Of a DNA stretch of 64,000 nt, positions 1,454 to 36,758 are shown one piece after another (within the stretch, counting starts at the first letter, position 1; every line of letters starts with the position of its first letter). The stretch covers positions 224,001-288,000 of the forward strand of contig CAVXYC010000032.1 in the NCBI GenBank assembly GCA_963765765.1, given 5' to 3'. The notes beneath the pieces are model-generated. The model was not told where the DNA came from, did no database searches, and saw only the letters and a program-made list of their open reading frames with translations. The DNA comes from an uncultured Chloroflexia bacterium. GTDB taxonomy: Bacteria > Chloroflexota > UBA6077 > JACCZL01. Made by a program: the position numbers and the translations under genes.

Positions 1454-1832
1454 ATGGGGCGCAAGCACATCCTGGCGGTGAACGGCTCCAGCGAATTCCT
1501 CGAGTTCGTCCGCGTGCTGTTTGAGCAAGAGCGTTACAACGTCCACGACGAACTTCGTCCCGCGCACGGACGCGATGATCGCCGCGCTCCAACCGGACCT
1601 GGTCATCGTGGATATCGTCCTGGGCCATCAAATGGGGTGGGATCTGCTCGAAAGCCTGCACCGCGAGGTCGTGACCAGGGACATCCCCTTGCTGCTCACA
1701 TCCACCGATCCTCGGATGCTGGCTCGGGCCCAAGCGGACGAGGCCCGCTACGGGCAGCATCAGGTGATTGCGAAGCCGATGGATGTCGATGAGCTGCTGG
1801 GCACGGTCTCGGAGATCATCGGCGCAGCGTGA
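1454..1832 (+). CDS. Stand-alone response regulator receiver (frameshifted near 1543)
   Basis: MGRKHILAVNG...RYNV joins TTTNFVP...PDLVIVDI...IAKPMD in another frame. Confidence 0.8.
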
Positions 1833-1994
1833 GCGGGGGTGGATGGACGGCGGGCGCCTTCCTGCGGACACTCCATCGCCGTAGACAAGGAAACCCAGCG
1901 CCCCGAGCTGTTCCGCTTCGACGATTTGGAGATCATCGACTCCAGCAGGATGAGCTCCCGATAGAGTCTGGGCGCTCATGACCGACGCACGGCG

Positions 1995-2390
1995 TCAGGT
2001 CGGTGGGGGGCCCAGCGGCTCGAGACCCTCGAGCATGCGGTGCACCTGCTCGTGGTGCTGCTCTTCGAGCACCGCCTCCTCTTCGATGCGCGCCGCGGTG
2101 GCTTCGTTACCGCGTTCACGCGACCAGGCGGCGAGCTTTCGGGCCAGGGCGGCATTCTCGGCCAGGGCGCGAGCGGCAGACACAACGGCGGCGTTGCGGG
2201 CCTCGCAGTGGGCGATCCACAGCGCGAGCGCCTCATACGCGTGGCCGATCCGACATTCGAAGGCGGGGTCGGTTCCGTCCTCGCGCTCCCACAGGGCGCC
2301 GCCGCAGCGGGGGCAGACGTAGCCGCTCGGTGCCCCAGGTGGCTCGACGCGGTGCCCATTGCTGCGCGGGTGGGGCGCGGGATCGCTCAT
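1995..2390 (-). CDS. Stand-alone protein resembling the C-terminal extension of CheB-like proteins (CxxC...CxxGH plus helical tail)
   Basis: PSGYVCPRCGGALWE...FECRIGHAY...AARALAENAALARKLA. Confidence 0.7.
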   Translation of the reverse strand: MSDPAPHPRSNGHRVEPPGAPSGYVCPRCGGALWEREDGTDPAFECRIGHAYEALALWIAHCEARNAAVVSAARALAENAALARKLAAWSRERGNEATAARIEEEAVLEEQHHEQVHRMLEGLEPLGPPPT

Positions 2391-25365: not shown

Positions 25366-28294
25366 TCAGCTCAAGCCGTGCTGGACGGCGTATGCGGTGG
25401 CTTCGGCGCGGCCGCGAGCGCCGATCTTCTGGTAGACGTGCGTGATGTGCCGCTCAACGGTGTTGACGCTGATAATCAGCTTATCGGCGATCTCCTGGGT
25501 GGTGCGACCGGATGCGATGAGCCCCAGGACCTCGATCTCTCGCGTGGTTAGACCGTCAGGATGCGTCACGGACAAGTACGGCTGGCTCGAGCCGTGAGAT
25601 TGCGGCGAGTCGGCGGGGTGAATCGCCAGGGCCTCCTCCGCAACCTCGTCCATCGACATCTTGCGCCCAATGATCCGCTCCGCCTGGAAACGCTCTTCGC
25701 CAAGGGAGCCGCGGATCGTATCCGACGCTGGACCGAGTACCGACTCCACCAGTGGAATAGGCCGAATGCTCACTGCCTCGCTCAAGGCGCTCAAGGCGCC
25801 TGACAATCTAGCCGCGCGCTCGATATCGCCCACCGCCACCGCTAGCGCCACAAACTGCGCCACGAGATTGCCCAGGAGCCAGCCGGCGTCCAGACCGCGA
25901 TAGTACTGGAGCGCCTCGCCAAGCCGTTCCCGCGTGGCCGGATAGTCACCTTCCGCGAAGTCAATCAGTCCGATCAGCGAGAGGATCGTTCCGGCGCCCT
26001 CCCGGAAGTCAATGCGGCGGCGGATGGTCAGGCTGTCCTCATACAGGCGCCGGGCATTCGCGTACCGGCCCTGAATTTGGTCTGCCAGGCCAAGGAGATG
26101 GAGCGCCCAGCCTTCCAACCACTCGTCCTGGATGTCGTGCGCCAGACCCAGACTCTGACGGCCGAAGTCTCGTGCGCAGTCAGCATCTCCCTCGATATAA
26201 CAAACGCGACCCAGGAGATGAAGCGCCCAGCCGGCCCACCATCCCTGGTCCAGGTTTCGAGAGAGAGCAAGCGCATCCTCCAGCAACGGCCGCGCCGCGC
26301 GCGTGTCTTGCTGGATGTGGGCGAGCCGGCCTGCACCAGCCAGGGCTTTGACGCGTGTGAGCGATGCATCATCGGTCTGGCTCAATGCGCGCGCCAGCCA
26401 GCGACGCGCCTCTCCGATGTGCGATCGGTTGTACCAGTACCAGGAAAGCGCGCCGCTCAGGCGTAGAGCCAGATGGGGATCACCCTCTGGGGTAAGGCTC
26501 CATTCCAGTGCCGCGCGTAGATTGTTGCGCTCTGACTCCAGGCGATCCAGCCAGTGAGCCTGCTCTGGACCCCGCAACAGAGGCTCAGCCTCCTCTGCAA
26601 GGGCCAGGAAATACTCGGCATGCCATCGGTGTATGATCGCGAGCTCACCGTTGAGAGCCAGGCTTTCCAGACCGTATTCGCGAATGGTCTCGAGCATTGC
26701 GTACCGAGGCTCGCCGGTCGGATCGTGCATGGGCCTGAGCAAGCTTTTGGCAAGCAACGAGTCGATGCCGTCCAACGCATCGACATCCAGTGGAGTAGCT
26801 GCCGCCGTCAATACCTGGCAGGCAGCTTCTGCGGCTTCGATCGTGCAACCGCCAACGAACACGGAGAGTCGGCGGAAGAACGCTTGCTCCTGCGGATCCA
26901 GGAGGTCGTAGCTCCAGGCGATCGTATCGCGAAGCGTCTGCTGCCGCGCCGGCTGGTCGCGCGGGCCGCCCGTCAGAAGTTGTAGTGACGGTGCGCTTGC
27001 CGGCAACGACAACCTCGCCAGCATCGCCGAGGGTGACAACAAGCGCGCCCGAGCCGCCGCAAGCTCGATGGCGAGCGGCAAGCCATCGAGACGATGACAG
27101 ATCTCCGCGACATCCGAGGCATTGGTCTCCGTCAGCGCGAAATCGGCCCGAACTGCCTGGGCACGCTCTACAAAGAGTCGGATGGATTCATACGTCCTGA
27201 GCGCGGCGACGCCATCCTTCGCACTCGCCAGCGGCTCACGCGGTGGTACTGCAAGCGACGGCACTTCATACTCGCGCTCGCCCGACAAGCGAAGCGCCAC
27301 GCGACTCGTCACCAGCAGCTTGAGACGGTCCGAGGCGCTCAGGATATCCGCGAGCTGCGGCCCCGCGTCGATGATCTGCTCGAGATTGTCCAGGACGATC
27401 AAGATCTCGCGATCACGGAGATGCTGCTTCAGCGTGTCGAGCGACTCAGGCCCACCGTCGATTGCCACGGCGAGCTCCCGACCGATGGTGGGCGCAACCA
27501 GGTCAGGGTCGCGAATCGGGGCGAGCCTGACGAAGTACACGCCATCGTCGAAGTCGTCCACCACATCCGCTGGCAACCTGAGCAGCCAGGCGCGTTTTGC
27601 CGATGCCTCCTGGCCCGATCAGCGTGACCAGCCCCGCGTCTGGCCGAAGCAGTAGCGCGCGAATCTCGGCGATCTCTCGCTCACGGCCTACCAGTGCGCC
27701 TCGCGACGTTGGCAGATGCCGAAGACGCGTATCCGGTCCCTCGAGCGGCGGAAAGTCTTCAGGAAGATCGGACGTCGAGAGCTGGAACACACCCTCCGGC
27801 TGCCTCAAGTCGCGAAGACGGTGAACTCCCAAATCGCGGAGTACGGCCCCATTCGGAATCGACTCTCGCACAAGGCTCTCGCTGGCTTCGGAAAGCAGGA
27901 TTTGGCCACCGTGCCCCAGGCCACGGATGCGGGCGCAGCGGTTGACCGCCGCCCCGTAATAGTCGCCGTCTCTGAGATTTGCCTCACCGGTATGGATGGC
28001 GATGCGCGCCTTTATCGGCTGGGGAGTGGGCCACGACTCCGCGGCGAAAGCTCGCTGGATGGAGAGCGCCGCGGAAGCCGCGGATATGGCGCCAGCGAAC
28101 ACGGCGAAGCGGCTGTCACCTTCACCGCGCGGGCGGATATGCACGCCGCCATGATCCCGGACGGCCGCCTCGAACAGGGCATCGTGAGAAACGAGGGCGA
28201 GACGCATCGAATCGGGAGCCTGGTCCCATAGGGCAGTGCTGCCCTCGATATCAGTAAGGAGAAAAGTGACCGTACCCGTTGGCAGATCTGCCAT
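25366..28294 (-). CDS. Adenylate/guanylate cyclase-like + STAND ATPase + TPR + LuxR HTH regulator (frameshifted near 27575)
   Basis: TFLLTDIEGST, GEGDS, GPGGIGKTRLA, LDNLEQ, LDGLPLAIELAA, LTTREIEVL. Confidence 0.9.
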
Positions 28295-28625: not shown

Positions 28626-29177
28626 CTACTGTTCGAAGGCCAGCGACAACTCCCCCGGGGCGTCCACAGGGACGCCGGGCGCCGGATGCTGCAGACGCAC
28701 GCGCGCATCGGCGGCGGCGTTGATGGCGACAAACGACCAGTTGAGTCGCGCGAGCTTGGCCTCGGCCTCCGCGCGCGTCTGCCCGATCACATCGGGAGCG
28801 ACCAGACCTTCACTGACGGTAACGCGCACCACGCGCTCCTCGCCCACGTGCCAGCCGGCGACCGGTGACTGCTGGATGATGACGCCGCGGCCATACTGCT
28901 CACTGGGGCGCTGGCCCAGGACTCGCACTGAGATTTCGGCCAACTCTGCTCGATCCTGCACCGTCGCAGCGTCCAGCCCAATAAGGTTGGGGACGCTATG
29001 GGCGAATTGGCGCGCCGGGTTCGGCAGATCGCTGAAGAAATGCGCAATTGCCAGCGTTATCACCGTAAAGATGATCGTTGATAGTGTGATGACTATCGCT
29101 GATTCGTAGGGGCTCGCGCCGGCGGGACGATGTCTGAAGCTCCGCACGGGTTGCGAATGTCGTAGCGAGGTGCTCAT
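28626..29177 (-). CDS. PASTA domain membrane protein
   Basis: TM followed by VPNLIG...QQSP...VTVSEG and PDVIG...QHPAPG repeats. Confidence 0.75.
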   Translation of the reverse strand: MSTSLRHSQPVRSFRHRPAGASPYESAIVITLSTIIFTVITLAIAHFFSDLPNPARQFAHSVPNLIGLDAATVQDRAELAEISVRVLGQRPSEQYGRGVIIQQSPVAGWHVGEERVVRVTVSEGLVAPDVIGQTRAEAEAKLARLNWSFVAINAAADARVRLQHPAPGVPVDAPGELSLAFEQ

Positions 29178-30137: not shown

Positions 30138-31394
30138 TTAAGCCGGCGCGCGGGTACTTGGCGCGTTCGCCAATGGTAAAGAGACAGTGAACGTCGTCCC
30201 ATGTCCAGGTGTGCTTTGAACCAAGAGTCCGCCGCCGTGCGCCTCGACAATCCCCCGGACGATATGCAATCCCAGCCCCGTGCCCTTTGGCGCGTCTCCG
30301 GAACCTTCGGCTACCAGCCTGACGTGCGGCTCGAATATCGACTCGATGCGGTCCGCCGGGATGCCGGGTCCTTCATCACTCACAGTCATACACGCTTGCG
30401 AGCCTTCGGACAACACGCGTACTCGGATTGCTCCAGTCGGAGCGTATTTGACGGCATTCTCAAGGAGGTTCGAGACCACCTGGGCAATGCGTTCTGGGTC
30501 GCCCATCACGAGCAGTGCGTCCGGGGAATCAAAGTGGAACACTTGCCCGTTGTAGCGGGCCCGCGCTACCTCTATTTCCTCCTGGACAACTTCCACAAGG
30601 TCAACCACGTGTTGATGCATGTCGAACCGACCCGCCGCGACTCGCGCGGCATCGGTTAGGTCTTCCACGAGGCGCGCGACTCGCCGCGCTTCCGAGATAA
30701 TGACGGTTCGCGCCCGCGCTTGCCGCTCCTGAGACACTTTTGTCCTGCCCAGGAGCTCCGCGTAGCCAGTGATGGCTGTGAGCGGCCCCATCAGCTCGTG
30801 CGCGACCATCGAGACAAACTCGTCACGCTCGCGATTGGCCTCCTCTAATTGGGCGAGGGCGTCATTGAGTGCGGCCCGTGAGGCCTGTTCCCTACCAAAA
30901 AGCTCTGCCTTCGTCTGATTCGCGGCACGCAGCTCATCTGCGCGCTGCTGTACGCAATCAGCTAATTCCGCGGCGTGTCGCTCCAGGAATGATTTCTCCT
31001 CTTGCACCTGGCGGCTGAGGCGATGCAGCTGAATCGCATGACTCAAGGAAGCCACAAAGTAGTCACGGTCGATAGGCTTCTGAATGTAATCGTGTGCACC
31101 GCCGCGCAATGCTTCAATTGCCAGGTCGTGCTCACCATGGCCCGTGATTAGCAAGACTGGAGCGTCCGGCCGAAGCTTACGAATCTCGGCCAGAAGTTGG
31201 AGGCCGTCCATGCCGGGCATCTTGATATCAACGACGATTGCATCGTAGTCCGTGGCAGCGATGCGATCGAGTGCCAGTGTCGCCGAATCGCACGTATCCA
31301 CGGCTGCCTGCTCCATACGCAGACGAAGAGTCTCAGACAATGCTTCCAGCAGTACCGTGTCGTCGTCAACGAGGACAATTCGGGTTTGATTCAT
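30138..31394 (-). CDS. Hybrid REC-HisKA-HATPase sensor kinase
   Basis: VLVDDD, DIKMP, MVAHELMGPL, NLLENAVKY, DEGPGI, GTGLGL. Confidence 0.93.
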   Translation of the reverse strand: MNQTRIVLVDDDTVLLEALSETLRLRMEQAAVDTCDSATLALDRIAATDYDAIVVDIKMPGMDGLQLLAEIRKLRPDAPVLLITGHGEHDLAIEALRGGAHDYIQKPIDRDYFVASLSHAIQLHRLSRQVQEEKSFLERHAAELADCVQQRADELRAANQTKAELFGREQASRAALNDALAQLEEANRERDEFVSMVAHELMGPLTAITGYAELLGRTKVSQERQARARTVIISEARRVARLVEDLTDAARVAAGRFDMHQHVVDLVEVVQEEIEVARARYNGQVFHFDSPDALLVMGDPERIAQVVSNLLENAVKYAPTGAIRVRVLSEGSQACMTVSDEGPGIPADRIESIFEPHVRLVAEGSGDAPKGTGLGLHIVRGIVEAHGGGLLVQSTPGHGTTFTVSLPLANAPSTRAPA

Positions 31395-32557
31395 GCCAGT
31401 GCTTGCACGGGCTGTTCTGCGTCGGACAGCGGGAGCTCGATGACGAAGGCGACACCTTCACCGGGATGGTTGTCAATGCGAATTGTCCCTTGATGATCAT
31501 GGACGATTCCGTAAGTGATGGAAAGTCCCAAGCCAGTCCCCTCGCCGACTTCCTTTGTTGTGAAGAACGGATCGAACACACGCTGCTCGATTTCTGGAGA
31601 GATCCCGTGGCCAGAGTCACGTACAGACAGCAATACCTTCCCGTCTTCCACGCCGGAAGCGATAACGATGAGCTTACGCGTCTGGTCGGTCAGCACATCT
31701 CGTGCGTTGGTCAGTAGATTAAGAATCACTTGCTCCAACTGGATGGAGTTGCCGATCACGATTGGGTTCTCGGGGGAAAGGCTCAGTTGCGTTGTAATGT
31801 CTCGAAGCCGCAGCTGCTCTTGTATTAAGGAGAGCGCGCTCTCGATCACTCCATTCACCGACACAGCCTCCCGGCTTACCGGCGTCGCACGTCCGAACGT
31901 GCGAAGGTGGGAGATGATCTGCGCTGACTTATTGACCTGCTCCATGGCGCGTCGCAGATCGCGCGTGATGCGCTCCTTGTCTGGGTTGCCTAGCTCGATG
32001 AGATCGATGACGTTGCCAATAAAGAGACCGATATTGTTGAGCGGATTGTTCAGCTCATGTGCAACGCCTGTGGTCAGCTCACCGAGCGTAGCGAGCTTGC
32101 CGGCCTGAACCAACTGCTCTTGCTTGTCTCGTAGCTCCTGCTCCCGACGCTGGACCTCCACGGTGGTGTCGCGCAAATCGCCCATGATGTGAATCATGGC
32201 TTTACGGCTCGCTTCAAGGCGCAGGTTTGACTGATGGGAGTCCTGCAAGATATGCAAAATTGCCCTTCGAGTATTGTCAAGACGTTCGGTCTGAAGCGCC
32301 AACCTCCTGCGATCACTCTCATAGTCGCTGAGGATGTGAAGCATCGCCTTGCGCTGGTGGGCTAGCCGCTTATTCGCCTCGTTCAGGTCGCAGATGATGT
32401 GAAGCATGGCGCGGCGAATTTCCGCGCTTTTGCGTTGCTGCTCAGCCATCTTTTCGGCTTGGTCACTGAGCTGCTCATACGCGACGCGAAGCTGCTCTAG
32501 CTCGTTGCTATGACCGCTGTATTCCACGAGGGTGGTGGAACGCGCGGCACCCATCAC
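31391..32557 (-). CDS. NtrB-type histidine kinase with repeated N-terminal helices and no sensor domain
   Basis: GVAHELNNPL, NLLTNARD, FDPFFTTK, GTGLGL; four R(R/K)A(M/I)(L/I)HIxxD repeats. Confidence 0.92.
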   Translation of the reverse strand: MMGAARSTTLVEYSGHSNELEQLRVAYEQLSDQAEKMAEQQRKSAEIRRAMLHIICDLNEANKRLAHQRKAMLHILSDYESDRRRLALQTERLDNTRRAILHILQDSHQSNLRLEASRKAMIHIMGDLRDTTVEVQRREQELRDKQEQLVQAGKLATLGELTTGVAHELNNPLNNIGLFIGNVIDLIELGNPDKERITRDLRRAMEQVNKSAQIISHLRTFGRATPVSREAVSVNGVIESALSLIQEQLRLRDITTQLSLSPENPIVIGNSIQLEQVILNLLTNARDVLTDQTRKLIVIASGVEDGKVLLSVRDSGHGISPEIEQRVFDPFFTTKEVGEGTGLGLSITYGIVHDHQGTIRIDNHPGEGVAFVIELPLSDAEQPVQALA

Positions 32558-33531
32558 GTTCGTCCCGAACCCTGCGCCCGGACAGAATCAGCCCTATTTT
32601 GAAATCGCTCCACTTCCTTCTGGAGCTTCTCCACCTCTTTCTCTAGCGCGATCATCTTGAGCTCGCGACCCACGACGACCTCTTCAAATTTTTCAAGGTC
32701 GAGAATTTTCTCCTGCAGCTCAGCCTTTGATTCCTCAAGGTCACGTACGACTTTTTCGTAGGCGCGCATATCGCGAAGGATGCCGATCGCGCCGATGACG
32801 TTCCCATCCGGGTCGCGTAGCGCCGAGGCGTTGAGCGTGGTAGGGATGACCTCGCCGGAGGCGCTGCGAGGGTTCAGCCCCGCGTTGCGGGTGACGCCTC
32901 GCTCGACCACCTCGCGCAGCGCGGCGGTGAACTCTCTGGCCTCCTCCGCGCTGATGAAGCGCGAGAGCGACTGCTCCAGCAACTCGTCGGGCCGGAATCC
33001 GAGAAGCTCGGAGACCGCGTCATTGGCCTGGAGAATCTTGCCCTCCAGATCCGATACGAACACCGGGTCCGGGGCATTCTTGATCAGGCTCTCGGCGTAG
33101 GCCCGCGCCTTGTCTAACTCTCGCATGTCGCGGAGAATGCCGATCGCGCCAATGACGTTCCCGTCCGGGTCGCGTAATGCCGAGGCATTGAGCGTGGTGG
33201 GGATGACCTCGTCGGAGGCGCTCCGGGGGTTGAGCACCGCGTTGCGAGTGACGCCTCGCTCGACCACCTCGCGCAGCGCGGCGGTGAACTCTCTGGCCTC
33301 CTCCGCGCTGATAAAGCGCGAGAGCGACTGCTCCAGCAACTCGTCAGGGCGGAAGCCGAGAAGCTCGGAGACCGCGTCATTGGCCTGGAGAATCTTGCCC
33401 TCCAGATCCGATACGAACACCGGATCCGGAGCGTTGGCAATGATGATGTCCGCGGCAAGCCATTCGCTCGGTCCGGGACTGTTGTCGCGTTTGCTTGACG
33501 GGCTCGTCTGCGACGGAAGGTCCTGGAACAT
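32554..33531 (-). CDS. PAS-PAS protein with C-terminal GRELKM coiled coil
   Basis: Two nearly identical PAS/PAC repeats (357-nt period); GGAGG RBS before ATG 33531. Confidence 0.9.
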   Translation of the reverse strand: MFQDLPSQTSPSSKRDNSPGPSEWLAADIIIANAPDPVFVSDLEGKILQANDAVSELLGFRPDELLEQSLSRFISAEEAREFTAALREVVERGVTRNAVLNPRSASDEVIPTTLNASALRDPDGNVIGAIGILRDMRELDKARAYAESLIKNAPDPVFVSDLEGKILQANDAVSELLGFRPDELLEQSLSRFISAEEAREFTAALREVVERGVTRNAGLNPRSASGEVIPTTLNASALRDPDGNVIGAIGILRDMRAYEKVVRDLEESKAELQEKILDLEKFEEVVVGRELKMIALEKEVEKLQKEVERFQNRADSVRAQGSGRT

Positions 33532-34026
33532 GGGCGTCCTCCGGAAATAGAGGCCAATGGGCTCAGATTTCGACGCGGGACTGCCGGACCAGGTGCGAGT
33601 CACCGGAGACTTTGGAAACCAACCGATCCCAGTTCGCGATTCGCGGAACGCAATTCGCGGGCCAGTAATGGGATTTTCTTGGGCCAACCCGGGCGTGGGG
33701 AGGCTCGGCTGGAGCTCGTGCAGATCCCCGCGTGGCTCCCCCCAGCGGCGCTGCGCGTGTAAATTGCGCGGGAGGAGAAGCAGGCCGTCACTGCCGTTAG
33801 CCGCGATCAGCGTCTCTAATCCCATCGTAACGAAGCCGTTCGAAATCCTTTCTTCCTCCGTAAGTCGCGGACGACATCGGGACAGTTAACGTAAATGGTG
33901 GAGCGACTCCCCGAAGCCGTGCTCGCGGAGCAGCTCCAACGTAATGGTTCTGCTCGTTGTGAAGTGATCAGGGAGCGGTCCAGCTTACCGGCAAACTCGG
34001 TACTGACGGGAGCGATTCTGGAAATC

Positions 34027-35269
34027 ATGGCCGAAACAGCAGCGAGCGAACGGCAGGATCAGCGGCGCCTCGAGTCGGTTAAGTCGACCGCCCAGGAAAG
34101 GACGACCTCGGCGACCGATAAAGGCAATTCGATTGCTAAGCACCTCGAGCGGTACGCTGTCTTCCGCGTGCTCGAGAGCGTCTTTCTCGGCGCTCGCAAA
34201 GACCGGCTCACCAATCACGCGGCCGCGATGACGTATTACGCGCTCTTCGCGCTCTTCCCCCTGCTCTTGCTCTTCATGTCCCTGGCAGGCCTGGCGCTAC
34301 AGAGCAACGAATCGGCCCGGGAGCAGATCCTCGGGCTCGTGGTTGGACTGCTCCCGCAGGGTCAGGAGCAGCTCCGAGAGGTGATCGCGGGTGTAATCGA
34401 CGCGAAGGGCGTTGCGGCCGGCGTGGGCATCCTCACTCTCTTGTGGAGCGCCCTCGGCTGGTTCCAGGTCATCGACACGAACGTGAACCAGATCTGGGGA
34501 GTCGACAAGCCACGCTCGTTCATCAAATCCAAGCTCTTCGCGCTCGCTATGGTGGCTGCCATCGGTGGCGTAGCCGCCCTCAGCTGGGGAGCCACTGTGG
34601 CGGTTGGGCTCCTCGGCGCATTTACGGACCTCCTCCCCGGGGCCGCGATGCTGTGGCAGATGGCGGTCTCGGCGATTGGCGTACTGACAATGACCGCGGC
34701 GTTCCTGGTCCTGTTTCGCTATACGCCACGGCGGACCATCGAGCTCGCGGACGTGTGGCCGGCCGCGCTGGTGACGGCGCTGGTGTGGGAGATGAGCCGG
34801 CGTGTGCTCGCGTTCTACCTCGAGCGGAACAACATGATCAGTGGATACGGACCGATCGGCGCGGCCATGGCGCTGGTTTTCTGGCTCTATATGGCCTGCA
34901 TCATATTGCTCCTGGGCGCGGAGCTGGCGTACGCGGTTGCCAAGGAGCGGCGGCGCATTGGTCCGCACGAGGAGATGCAATTGGTAGCGCCGGCCGGTGA
35001 GCAGGCGACGCCTAAGTTTGCTCCCCAGGTCGGAGCCGGATTCGACAATCCCGACGCCCGCGAGCCGATCTTACCCGGAGCGTCGATGGTCTCGGGTCAT
35101 CCGTCGGGACCCGATCGACTCCCGCCCCAGCGGTGAGCTCCCCGCAGTGAGAGACAGTGGACTCGTGAAGACGCTGCTATGGACCGGTCTCAGCGCCGGG
35201 GCGCACGCGCTCGTGGGTCTACTGGCGCGGCACTTCACCGTGGCCGTGTGGCAGCGAAATGACAGGTGA
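34027..35269 (+). CDS. YihY/BrkB family membrane protein, probably with a frameshifted C-terminal helix
   Basis: AAAMTYYALFALFP, YGPIGA, LLLGAE; ORF stops at 35136 but the KTLLWTGLSAG tail follows in another frame. Confidence 0.85.
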
Positions 35270-35699
35270 ACGCCCGCCCACGACCATCTGACTCCACGTA
35301 TCGATCGTGCACCTGTCACGGCAGGCCGGTACAGACTGGGCAAGTTTTAAATGAGGTGGTCGCCGCGCCGGATCTTGCCGGCATCGGACGGTTGGCCCGA
35401 TCGTGGAAGCACGACGACGCTCCCGATGGCACCGGCGGCGGTGGTTGGCCAGGCCTGGGCCCGCGCGGCCATCGCGAGCTGTCCGGACGACCGGACACGC
35501 ACGTATGATCTGGGGCACCAACGGGGCTTAAATCGCTCGCGCCCGGGGCGGTCGACGGTGGGCCAGTGGCGGCGGCTATTGGACCAAGTGGGCCGGGGCA
35601 GCCATCGACCTGTAGCCATATCGCCGCGCTCCCTGGGGCGGGTTGACTGGAGTGACTTCGCGAAGTATGCTCGCGGCATTCCGCGATGGAGGCACCGCG

Positions 35700-36758
35700 A
35701 TGGCCATTGACGATGCGAAGCTAAATGCATTCATGGGCCAGGTGGTTGGTGACATGGGCGCCACAATGAGCGCCATTCTCGTGGACATCGGTGACAAGCT
35801 GGGCTTGTACCGTGCGATGGCGGATTCTCGTCCCGTTACTTCGGTCGAGTTGGCCGAGCGGACTGGCACGGCCGAGCGTTACGTCCGTGAGTGGCTGTCC
35901 AATCAGGCTGCCGGAGGATACGTCTCCTACGACGCGGCATCTGGAACCTTCTCGCTCCCTCCAGAGCAGGCGTTGGCACTTGCCACGGAAGGGAGTCCAG
36001 CCTTCGTGCCGGGCGCGTTTCAGATCATCGCATCGCTGTTTCGCGACGAGGCGAAGATTCTCGAGGCATTTCGAACTGGAGAAGGCGTAGGCTGGCACGA
36101 GCACGACTCTGAGCTCTTTATCGGAACGGAGCGTTTCTTCCGGCCCGGCTACAACGCGAACCTGGTCAATAACTGGGTTCCGTCGCTGGACGGAGTGGAG
36201 GCGAAGCTGCTCGCTGGCGCCCGCGTCGCGGACGTCGGCTGTGGTCTCGGCGCGTCAATCATCATCCTGGCCCAGGCCTACCCGAGCTCGACGTTCGTTG
36301 GGTTCGACTATCACGATCGATCCATCGAGCTGGCGCGCGAGCGCGCAGCGGATGCTGGCGTGGGAGATCACGTGAAGTTTGAGGTTGCCACGGCCAAGAC
36401 TTACCCAGGGAAAGATTACGACCTGGTGGCTTTCTTCGACAGCCTGCATGACATGGGTGACCCCGTTGGCGCCGCTAAGCACGTACGTGAGTCGCTGGCG
36501 GCGGATGGCACCTGGCTCCTGGTTGAGCCATTTGCCAACGATCGGCTTGAAGACAATCTCAACCCGGTGGGTTGCGTTTACTATGGCGGTTCGACGATGA
36601 TTTGCACTCCGAACTCGCTAAGTCAGGAAGTCGGCCTTGCGCTCGGCTCACAGGCCGGTGAAGGCCGTCTGCGTGATGTCGCCCTTCAGGCTGGGTTCCG
36701 CCACTTCCGGCGCGCCACCGAGACGCCCTTCAACGCGGTGTTCGAGGCACGTCCGTAA
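35700..36758 (+). CDS. SAM-dependent methyltransferase with N-terminal winged helix
   Basis: GDKLGLY, ERYVREWL, VADVGCGLG, FDSLHDMGDP. Confidence 0.92.
   Translation: MAIDDAKLNAFMGQVVGDMGATMSAILVDIGDKLGLYRAMADSRPVTSVELAERTGTAERYVREWLSNQAAGGYVSYDAASGTFSLPPEQALALATEGSPAFVPGAFQIIASLFRDEAKILEAFRTGEGVGWHEHDSELFIGTERFFRPGYNANLVNNWVPSLDGVEAKLLAGARVADVGCGLGASIIILAQAYPSSTFVGFDYHDRSIELARERAADAGVGDHVKFEVATAKTYPGKDYDLVAFFDSLHDMGDPVGAAKHVRESLAADGTWLLVEPFANDRLEDNLNPVGCVYYGGSTMICTPNSLSQEVGLALGSQAGEGRLRDVALQAGFRHFRRATETPFNAVFEARP

Follow-up and report, generated by a model that had tools for sequence, protein, structure and literature searches.

A stretch of 64,000 nucleotides (nt) from an uncultured Chloroflexia bacterium (GCA_963765765.1, contig CAVXYC010000032.1, positions 224,001 to 288,000), called the window hereafter, carries a three-gene signalling cassette in which the sensor and the histidine kinase are separate proteins. 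Gene 1 encodes a kinase-less PAS-PAS sensor with a conserved C-terminal tail, gene 2 a sensor-less histidine kinase whose N-terminal coiled coil holds four RxAxLHIxxD repeats, and gene 3 a receiver domain fused to a second kinase. This split layout of sensor and kinase genes, with their motifs, is confirmed. Tail and repeats accompany each other across genomes and, judged by that distribution, their pairing is not chance; sensor and kinase very likely form one functional unit. Direct docking of the tail on the RxAxLHI repeats is the best mechanism that we can propose, and we hold it to be somewhat probable.

Tail of the sensor and repeats of the kinase

Open reading frame (ORF) calling filled positions 30138-33531 with three genes, all on the minus strand, as are their features given below, with overlapping stop and start codons at the adjoining ends. 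Gene 1 (32554..33531, 325 amino acids (aa)) starts at the ATG at 33531, with GGAGGA 5' of it, and its open frame extends upstream of this ATG to 33825 (423-aa frame). Gene 2 (31391..32557, 388 aa) encodes a HisKA/HATPase_c histidine kinase by Pfam, with the H-box HELNNP containing H167. Gene 3 (30138..31394, 418 aa) matched Pfam Response_reg, HisKA and HATPase_c and encodes a REC-HisKA-HATPase_c protein. The junction of genes 1 and 2 reads GTGATG; gene 1, which stops at the TGA, shares 4 nt with gene 2 if the latter starts at the GTG and 1 nt if it starts at the ATG. The junction of genes 2 and 3 reads ATGA, an overlap of 4 nt. These junctions bear out the overlapping stop and start codons described in an earlier sequence-only reading of this DNA, and the 4-nt overlaps suggest that the three genes are a translationally coupled signalling cassette. 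Promoter-like and terminator-like sites were looked for on the minus strand inside the cluster, and none were seen.

The catalytic core of gene 2 is complete. HisKA was matched at residues 158-224 (28.1 bits, Pfam cutoff 26.9), which gives a class I (HisKA-type) dimerization and histidine phosphotransfer (DHp) domain, and HATPase_c at residues 270-378 (84.5 bits, cutoff 26.4), which gives a GHKL ATPase. H167 in HELNNP is invariant among 101 aligned kinases, as are N280, N284, D314, G316, G318, G340 and G344. Residues 1-155 matched no Pfam or NCBIfam family, so no input domain is recognised in the same polypeptide; such a domain is usual, not defining, for class I histidine kinases. In its place lies a coiled coil (residues ~20-157, 32087..32500) of about 130 residues, which keeps essentially one heptad frame over residues ~27-143 and runs into the DHp helix according to the register analysis. 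The matching stretch of a fused homologue (P0127, described below) was modelled as a continuous helix, residues 452-589.

Motif, alignment and register place four repeats in this coil: RRAMLHIICD (residues 48-57, 32387..32416), RKAMLHILSD (residues 69-78, 32324..32353), RRAILHILQD (residues 97-106, 32240..32269) and RKAMIHIMGD (residues 118-127, 32177..32206). They are spaced 21/28/21 residues apart in one heptad frame. The sensor-less kinase with four repeats at this spacing, as claimed in the sequence-only reading, was confirmed by Pfam and by the motif positions. In each repeat, R, A, H and D are the same in all 101 kinases. These knots have hydrophobic residues at g, a, b, d and e (A-M-L-x-I-I/L), and between the knots many a/d positions are polar (A61, Q68, D82, Q89, T96, S107, S110, S117, T131, R138 and K145). 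The window's genome contains 38,255 stop-to-stop segments of at least 80 aa, the set behind the counts of the repeat and GRE patterns; the RxAxLHIxxD pattern matched four times, all in one segment, gene 2, which rules out chance. With the 155 N-terminal residues as query, 4636 proteins were matched at E<=1e-3 among 4915 candidates, and the 120 matches listed are mostly ~385 aa long and 64-88% identical to the query over the N-terminal part. A search of the ESM Atlas with the kinase N-terminus returned only unnamed clusters below 0.9.

The Pfam content of gene 1 is two PAS domains and no output or enzyme domain (PAS 135 bits, PAS_4 123 bits, two stretches each). PAS domain 1 (33115..33435, PAS_4) covers residues 131-237 and PAS domain 2 (32767..33093, PAS) residues 245-353 of the 423-aa frame. 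The remaining 69 residues comprise a tail helix of ~57 residues (32593..32763) and ~12 non-conserved residues. The helix was delimited by alignment, and the matching stretch of P0127 was modelled as one helix, residues 373-437. Its conserved core, KFEEVVVGRELKMIALEKE (32635..32691), was defined by conservation across 58 tails, in which F26, R33 and E34 are invariant and L23, E24, V31, G32, L35, K36 and M37 are conserved in at least 90%. The consensus F-x3-V-x-G-R-E-L-K-M-I-x-L-E-K-E is near-invariant. Register analysis revealed a broad hydrophobic core (F, V-V-V, L, M-I) around the conserved Gly, which breaks the heptads, followed by regular heptads. The core ends 25 residues short of the stop of gene 1, and the Gly of GRELKM lies 38 residues before it. 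The sequence-only reading was right that the PAS protein has no output domain, and it erred in ending the protein at ...EKEV, since 25 further residues are present. Pfam and NCBIfam hold no family on the tail helix, and searches of solved structures, for which the tail profile and the kinase N-terminus served as queries, gave generic coiled coils only (E>=0.045).

Both elements are single in the window's genome. The tail core pattern of the wider class described below, F-x3-[VAL]-x-G-R-E-x-[KR]-M-I-x-L within ~25-60 residues of the stop, is matched by gene 1. A loose six-residue GRE pattern occurs in 18 segments, and the surrounding helix context in gene 1 only; this is the outcome of the count of GRELKM-type proteins in this genome that the sequence-only reading had proposed. 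The profile of 58 tails gave one match. A whole-protein sensor alignment matched mostly PAS domains, and at the tail positions it matched the known locus plus one weak match (E 0.012). Among 28 kinase-like ORFs of this genome one, gene 2, carries the partner motif.

The PAS units of gene 1 (32765-33421) are a tandem duplication of 357 nt, with 94% nucleotide identity over 300 nt. Homologues of gene 1 hold 0-4 PAS units by motif count, with a mode of 3. The near-identical units, together with this range of numbers among homologues, suggest repeated duplication or concerted evolution inside the gene. In translation the PAS units contain neither Cys nor His, that is, none for the usual cofactors.

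Pairing of tail and repeat kinase across genomes

The phylum was sampled with 401 genomes, the window's included; it is presumably Chloroflexota, since a protein from one sampled genome is 100% identical to one of Dehalogenimonas. The kinase coil was found in 23 of these (E<=1.7e-34), with one strong copy each, and the tail profile matched 25 (E<=3.3e-10), among them all 23 coil genomes. The tail lies directly upstream of the coil in 23/23. Besides the window's own locus, 20 of 22 phylum loci have the tail ORF in frame, and the other two, L015 and L023, are frameshifted. In these two (L015 in the single-contig genome G138, L023 in G339) the tail is in another frame than the PAS body and the kinase is intact, which suggests frameshifted sensor genes. 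One of five other genomes of the window's own family carries the coil.

An exhaustive tail search yielded 354 representative clusters. Among the best 150 of these, the core lies at most 45 residues from the C-terminus in 118, is internal in 19, several of which run on into repeats, and is a variant in 13; the median distance from Gly to stop is 30 residues among the 137 that match the core pattern. Scanning species-representative genome contigs with the tail confirmed 537 loci, of which the best 80 were examined. These come from Chloroflexota, Actinomycetota, Armatimonadota, Acidobacteriota, Gemmatimonadota, Planctomycetota, Nitrospirota, Methylomirabilota and others, with Ktedonobacter racemifer DSM 44963, K. 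robiniae, Ktedonosporobacter rubrisoli and Dictyobacter kobayashii among the Chloroflexota. An ORF with 2-4 repeats and an H-box follows immediately downstream in 75 of the 80, two run off the contig and three have none. Repeat spacings in the 75 loci are 21/28/21, 28/21, 21/21, 21/49 and 49/21, all multiples of seven, and the sensor ends 22-46 residues after the Gly in nearly all of the best 80. Across phyla the sensors are 80-90% identical and the kinases 54-71%. These identities, together with the patchy distribution, point to horizontal spread under strong constraint. A relation of one PAS unit per repeat was considered and rejected, since PAS units (0-4) and repeats (2-4) show no relation in 77 complete pairs.

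The three loci without a downstream repeat kinase are L099, a disrupted copy, and L102 and L104, from Nitrospiraceae metagenome-assembled genomes (MAGs). L102 and L104 encode REC-PAS-tail proteins adjoining a peptidase gene. Their genomes hold a four-repeat kinase at a separate site, where its 5' neighbour is an unrelated oxidoreductase-like gene and no tail gene lies upstream, so tail and repeat kinase co-occur there unlinked. Tail matches number 9 in one MAG and 11 in the other (E 1e-27 to 1e-8), and each MAG has one strong repeat kinase; the kinases were counted with the 155-residue query, which could miss kinases with single or diverged motifs. Seven of these tail proteins were examined (four REC-PAS, one MEDS-GAF, two PAS); none has an H-box, the tail lies 23-31 residues before the stop, and no kinase was found in the 1.5-kb flanks. 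REC-PAS-tail proteins in the two MAGs (G401 and G402; L102, L104, L222, L225, L226 and L230) are receivers that end in the tail, and by eye the REC of L102 and L104 resembles that of gene 3. If the tail docks on the kinase, such proteins would form a feedback loop from the phosphorylated receiver back to the kinase.

Six longer proteins match the kinase coil. P0126 and P0127 are fusions that run from a PAS array through the tail, a low-complexity linker of ~45 residues and the repeats to the kinase. P0123 joins a membrane HAMP sensor straight to the repeats, without a tail. P0122 and P0124 look frameshifted, and some of the long fused forms may be assembly errors. AlphaFold2 modelled P0127 (mixed alignment; mean predicted local distance difference test (pLDDT) 81.6, predicted template modelling score (pTM) 0.39) with a helix at 373-437, disorder at 438-451 and a helix at 452-589 that passes through the repeats into the DHp domain. 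Because the linker is modelled as disordered between two long helices, the model implies that the signal in the fusions must pass via tertiary contact and not along a continuous helix. A distant pair from genome G065, at 27-30% identity, keeps the architecture: its sensor bears a G-R-E-L-K-M-I-E-L-K tail core, and the kinase that comes next has five Q-R-A-x-L-N-I-L-D-D motifs at 21-residue spacing. The motif co-occurrence that the sequence-only reading had asked about is upheld by all these cases, as tail and repeats are not independent in the 23/23 phylum genomes, the 75/80 loci, the unlinked Nitrospiraceae and the fusions.

By its core pattern, the tail belongs to a far larger, unnamed class of kinase-less sensors with a conserved C-terminal G-R-E tail. 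Gene 1 has the features of this class, as it lacks an output domain, carries the tail core near its stop and is followed immediately, with the 4-nt overlap, by a kinase with four copies of the motif. In genome G150, a PocR/PAS protein with a related tail is followed by a V4R-domain gene and then by a HAMP kinase with a single R-K-A-M-L-N-I-L-E-D-L before its DHp domain. Relatives of the G150 tail are sensor-only proteins in 23/23 cases (PAS, GAF, HAMP, SBP_bac_3, dCache, PocR, REC), with the tail C-terminal in all. Among metagenome tail loci, an H-box occurs in 0/78 tail ORFs, and the core starts 28-63 residues before the stop in 77/78. Being common to sensor-only proteins of many architectures (23/23, and 78/78 without an H-box), the tail is, on this distribution, a portable module. 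At least 2.5 kb of downstream sequence is available at 37 of the 78 metagenome loci, and 24 of these 37 have a downstream kinase, counted if it is on the same strand and starts within 3 kb. A motif of the type A-x-L-N-x-x-E/D-D precedes the H-box in 11 of the 24, exactly 31 residues before the His in nine of the 11, and a variant was found by eye in three more.

Two side observations concern this wider class. A small gene often lies between the tail sensor and the motif kinase, such as the 179-aa V4R-domain protein at L139 of G150 (1688-2227, plus strand), and gaps of 512-661 nt between sensor and kinase recur in L147, L158, L177 and L186; the intervening gene may be a third component. The downstream kinases at L168, L195, L198, L205 and L210, which are without the partner motif, share a different repeated coiled-coil motif of the Q-N-x-E-L-E type between GAF and DHp, which may be a second kind of linker.

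As for gene 3, 20 of the 22 phylum loci have a REC domain after the kinase (at L012 the sequence ends, and at L020 there is none in 830 nt), and in the wider scan 66 of 74 loci have one directly after it. Among homologues of gene 3 the REC part is up to 70% identical and the output is variable, namely HisKA-HATPase_c (window, Ktedonobacteria), PAS-HisKA-HATPase_c, SpoIIE-HATPase_c_2 or sigma-54 AAA+ with HTH_8. Because REC is conserved while the output varies, gene 3 is likely the cognate receiver of gene 2. The role of the third gene as a relay, proposed in the sequence-only reading, gains support from this conserved REC 3' of the kinase and its variable outputs.

Proposed docking of the tail and its alternatives

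In the docking mechanism, sensor and kinase core, which are separate polypeptides, would assemble non-covalently. The tail is the only non-PAS element of the sensor and the coil the only non-catalytic element of the kinase, and the tail helix would pack onto one or more RxAxLHIxxD knots. Since a two-stranded coil buries a and d only, the hydrophobic b, e and g residues of each knot would be exposed as a patch, with the conserved Arg pair, His and Asp at its sides. A docked tail would alter how stable the signalling helix is or shift its register, and autophosphorylation of H167 would be set in this way. The REC domain of gene 3 would then take over the phosphate and control the gene 3 kinase. 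The net charge is -4 for the tail (mean -4.2, 80 tails) and +3 for the repeat region (mean +2.0, 71), and these mildly opposite charges lend docking weak support. Complex prediction with two copies each of kinase residues 1-240 and the 69-residue tail, run with alignments for both and no controls, scored 0.00 and weighs neither way. The data show the structure of the genes, their motifs and conservation, the co-occurrence of the two modules and that fusions exist; we infer the docking site, its stoichiometry and the direction of regulation, as we do the contact itself. Of the complementary docking motifs postulated in the sequence-only reading, the dependence of one motif on the other stands, through co-occurrence, adjacency and fusions, and the physical contact keeps the standing of a proposal.

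Several points weigh against docking. No result shows contact; the AlphaFold2 output for P0127, with its pTM of 0.39, has no contact information. Given the ordinary heptads after the core, the tail could simply dimerise, and its target in the kinase could also be the DHp or ATPase domain rather than the repeats. The loci are mostly close relatives and not independent, and the co-occurring phylum genomes span only seven families. In the wider class the association is partial (11-14 of 24 downstream kinases with the partner motif), while in the window's subfamily it is near-complete. A partner-type motif also serves as an inter-domain linker inside the sensor-only proteins P0278 and P0283 and is not exclusive to kinases. 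The window's genome has one tail for four repeat sites, and repeat number does not follow PAS number.

The point on dimerisation can be put as an explanation of its own, in which the tail does no more than dimerise the sensor, in the way of the J-alpha helix in short LOV proteins, any contact with the kinase is made via PAS surfaces or the DHp and ATPase domains, and the repeats are a stalk. The regular a/d heptads after the core and the modelling of the tail as one long helix fit this account, as does the absence of the partner motif from ~10 of the 24 downstream kinases in the wider class. However, the core is near-invariant across phyla and unrelated sensors, and its Gly and V-V-V run break the heptads, which exceeds the usual constraint of dimerisation; moreover, the pairing is near-obligate although only the coil sets the kinase of the window's subfamily apart from other kinases. 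We consider dimerisation alone unlikely, if still worth keeping in mind. The coil itself could instead sense pH or metal through four His-x3-Asp pairs on one helix face, with the PAS protein as an accessory modulator. All eight residues concerned (H53, H74, H102, H123, D57, D78, D106 and D127) are invariant in the 101 kinases, and the polar a/d positions between knots suggest a marginally stable coil, but the distant G065 pair and the wider class keep the architecture with Asn instead of His, which makes a coil sensor improbable.

Read by eye, the tail core F-x5-G-R-E-L-K-M looks like an H-box whose His is exchanged for Arg, and the tail might be a His-less mimic of the first DHp helix that inhibits the kinase, much as small anti-kinase proteins do, by inserting into or capping the DHp domain. 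Profile-profile comparison of tail and kinase found no similarity (probability 1.2%), the spacing from Phe to R/H is off by one and Pfam HisKA does not match the tail, so this possibility is very improbable. The chance that the split is an artefact or a pseudogene, a single PAS-kinase gene broken by a frameshift or stop, is slight enough to be nearly neglected. The six longer fused forms and the frameshifts at L015, L023 and L028 could be read that way. Against these stand 4636 stand-alone kinases versus six long forms and a split arrangement in 75 of 80 loci, and several of the long forms (P0122, P0124) look frameshifted themselves. The 4-nt overlaps, and a distance of 22-46 residues between the Gly and the end of the tail at nearly every locus, also speak for genuine separate genes.

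Beyond docking of one sensor on one kinase, the G-R-E tail and the R-x-A-x-L-[HN]-I helix might constitute a general plug and socket, with kinases that carry three to five sockets in tandem acting as multi-port hubs, a reading that is tentative and on balance doubtful. Any sensor or receiver module ending in the plug could then be attached in trans to a socket kinase; the sockets would be filled by one PAS sensor in the window's genome, and in the Nitrospiraceae MAGs 9 and 11 tails would be available per four-socket kinase. The sequence-only reading held that several sensors could act on one kinase, and this is unsupported in the window's genome because one tail and one kinase were found there. 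Given the numbers in the Nitrospiraceae, several sensors may share one kinase elsewhere.

Neighbouring genes and known systems

Several further genes flank the cassette in the window. On the minus strand, a cyclase and AAA_16 ORF (27503..28294) overlaps a TPR and LuxR/GerE ORF (25366..27576) in a different frame; the two (25366-28294) resemble a single large cyclase-ATPase-TPR-LuxR regulator that a frameshift or sequencing error has split. Downstream of the cassette, 28626-29177 (minus strand) encodes a small protein with one PASTA domain and an N-terminal hydrophobic stretch, without a kinase domain. The divergent neighbours on the plus strand encode a YihY/BrkB-family membrane protein (33895-35136) and a winged helix-turn-helix and methyltransferase protein (HTH_65, Methyltransf_31; 35643-36758), and no link of these neighbours to the cassette was seen at other loci.

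In a gene-by-gene reading of two-component systems, an output-less PAS protein and an input-less kinase are annotation dead ends. If tail and repeats are a true docking pair, thousands of output-less sensors and receivers could become assignable to kinases from sequence alone, the integration of several sensors on one kinase would become testable, and a small portable handle for synthetic sensor-kinase combinations would be available. The window offers a clean experimental entry, with soluble proteins, one-to-one pairing and a kinase that consists of the socket array and the catalytic core only. Natural fusions can serve for comparison, and cultured carriers are available, such as Ktedonobacter racemifer DSM 44963. 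At the level of abstracts, no description of the tail or of the repeat motif was found in the literature.

Stand-alone sensors that steer a separate histidine kinase are known from H-NOX proteins with their kinases and from periplasmic binding proteins with kinases of the LuxQ/TorS type. These pairs, like the window's, are separate polypeptides, usually from adjacent genes, with a sensor that has no enzymatic output. They differ in using system-specific globular interfaces, whereas the window's family has a short helical tail common to unrelated sensors and a motif on the kinase's signalling helix, which looks, from the sequences compared, like a generic plug and socket rather than a system-specific interface. 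Chemoreceptor-CheW-CheA arrays feed the input of many sensors to one kinase. A possible likeness is found in the Nitrospiraceae MAGs, with 9 and 11 tails per repeat kinase; in contrast, the window's pair has no CheW-like adaptor or methylation helices, its kinase is of class I HisKA type and its genome has one sensor. Known examples of split histidine kinases are divided within the kinase core, into a phosphoacceptor and a catalytic part. An assignment of gene 2 to this type was rejected, as it holds both HisKA and HATPase_c, and the break in the window lies between sensor and kinase. Common to split kinases and Hik36-Hik43, as outlined in the respective sources (PMC3591291; PMC7656254), and to the window's pair is one kinase function distributed over two polypeptides.

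Short LOV and short PAS proteins, in the outline given by their sources (PMC4335406, PMC4416707, PMC5314338), resemble gene 1 in having a PAS core with a C-terminal helix and no effector. Gene 1 differs in lacking the flavin-binding, adduct-forming Cys, and in having a tail with a conserved core and a conserved kinase partner gene. With no Cys in its PAS units, its identification as a short LOV protein was rejected. The docking domains of polyketide synthases and nonribosomal peptide synthetases, as summarised in PMC9113145, resemble the proposed pair in that short helical ends, C-terminal in one subunit and N-terminal in the next, would put the products of successive genes in order as they assemble non-covalently; they belong to a different protein world, and the proposed socket of the window's family forms a series of three to five copies along a coiled coil. 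Gene 3 resembles LvrB, a REC-controlled histidine kinase (outlined in PMC13269768), in its N-terminal receiver fused directly to HisKA and HATPase_c, and NCBIfam scores set it apart from this type: gene 3 scored 147.4 bits against LvrA (cutoff 1200) and is not a member, LvrB was not among the best 25 of the 173 NCBIfam families that matched gene 3 at E<=0.01, and gene 2, with 130.6 bits against LvrB (cutoff 500), is not a member either. A stand-alone sensor controlling a neighbouring kinase is an already known kind of system. What would be new, if true, is a generic helical plug on many sensor architectures, a matching socket on the signalling helix of the kinase and the tandem socket array of the subfamily to which the window's kinase belongs.

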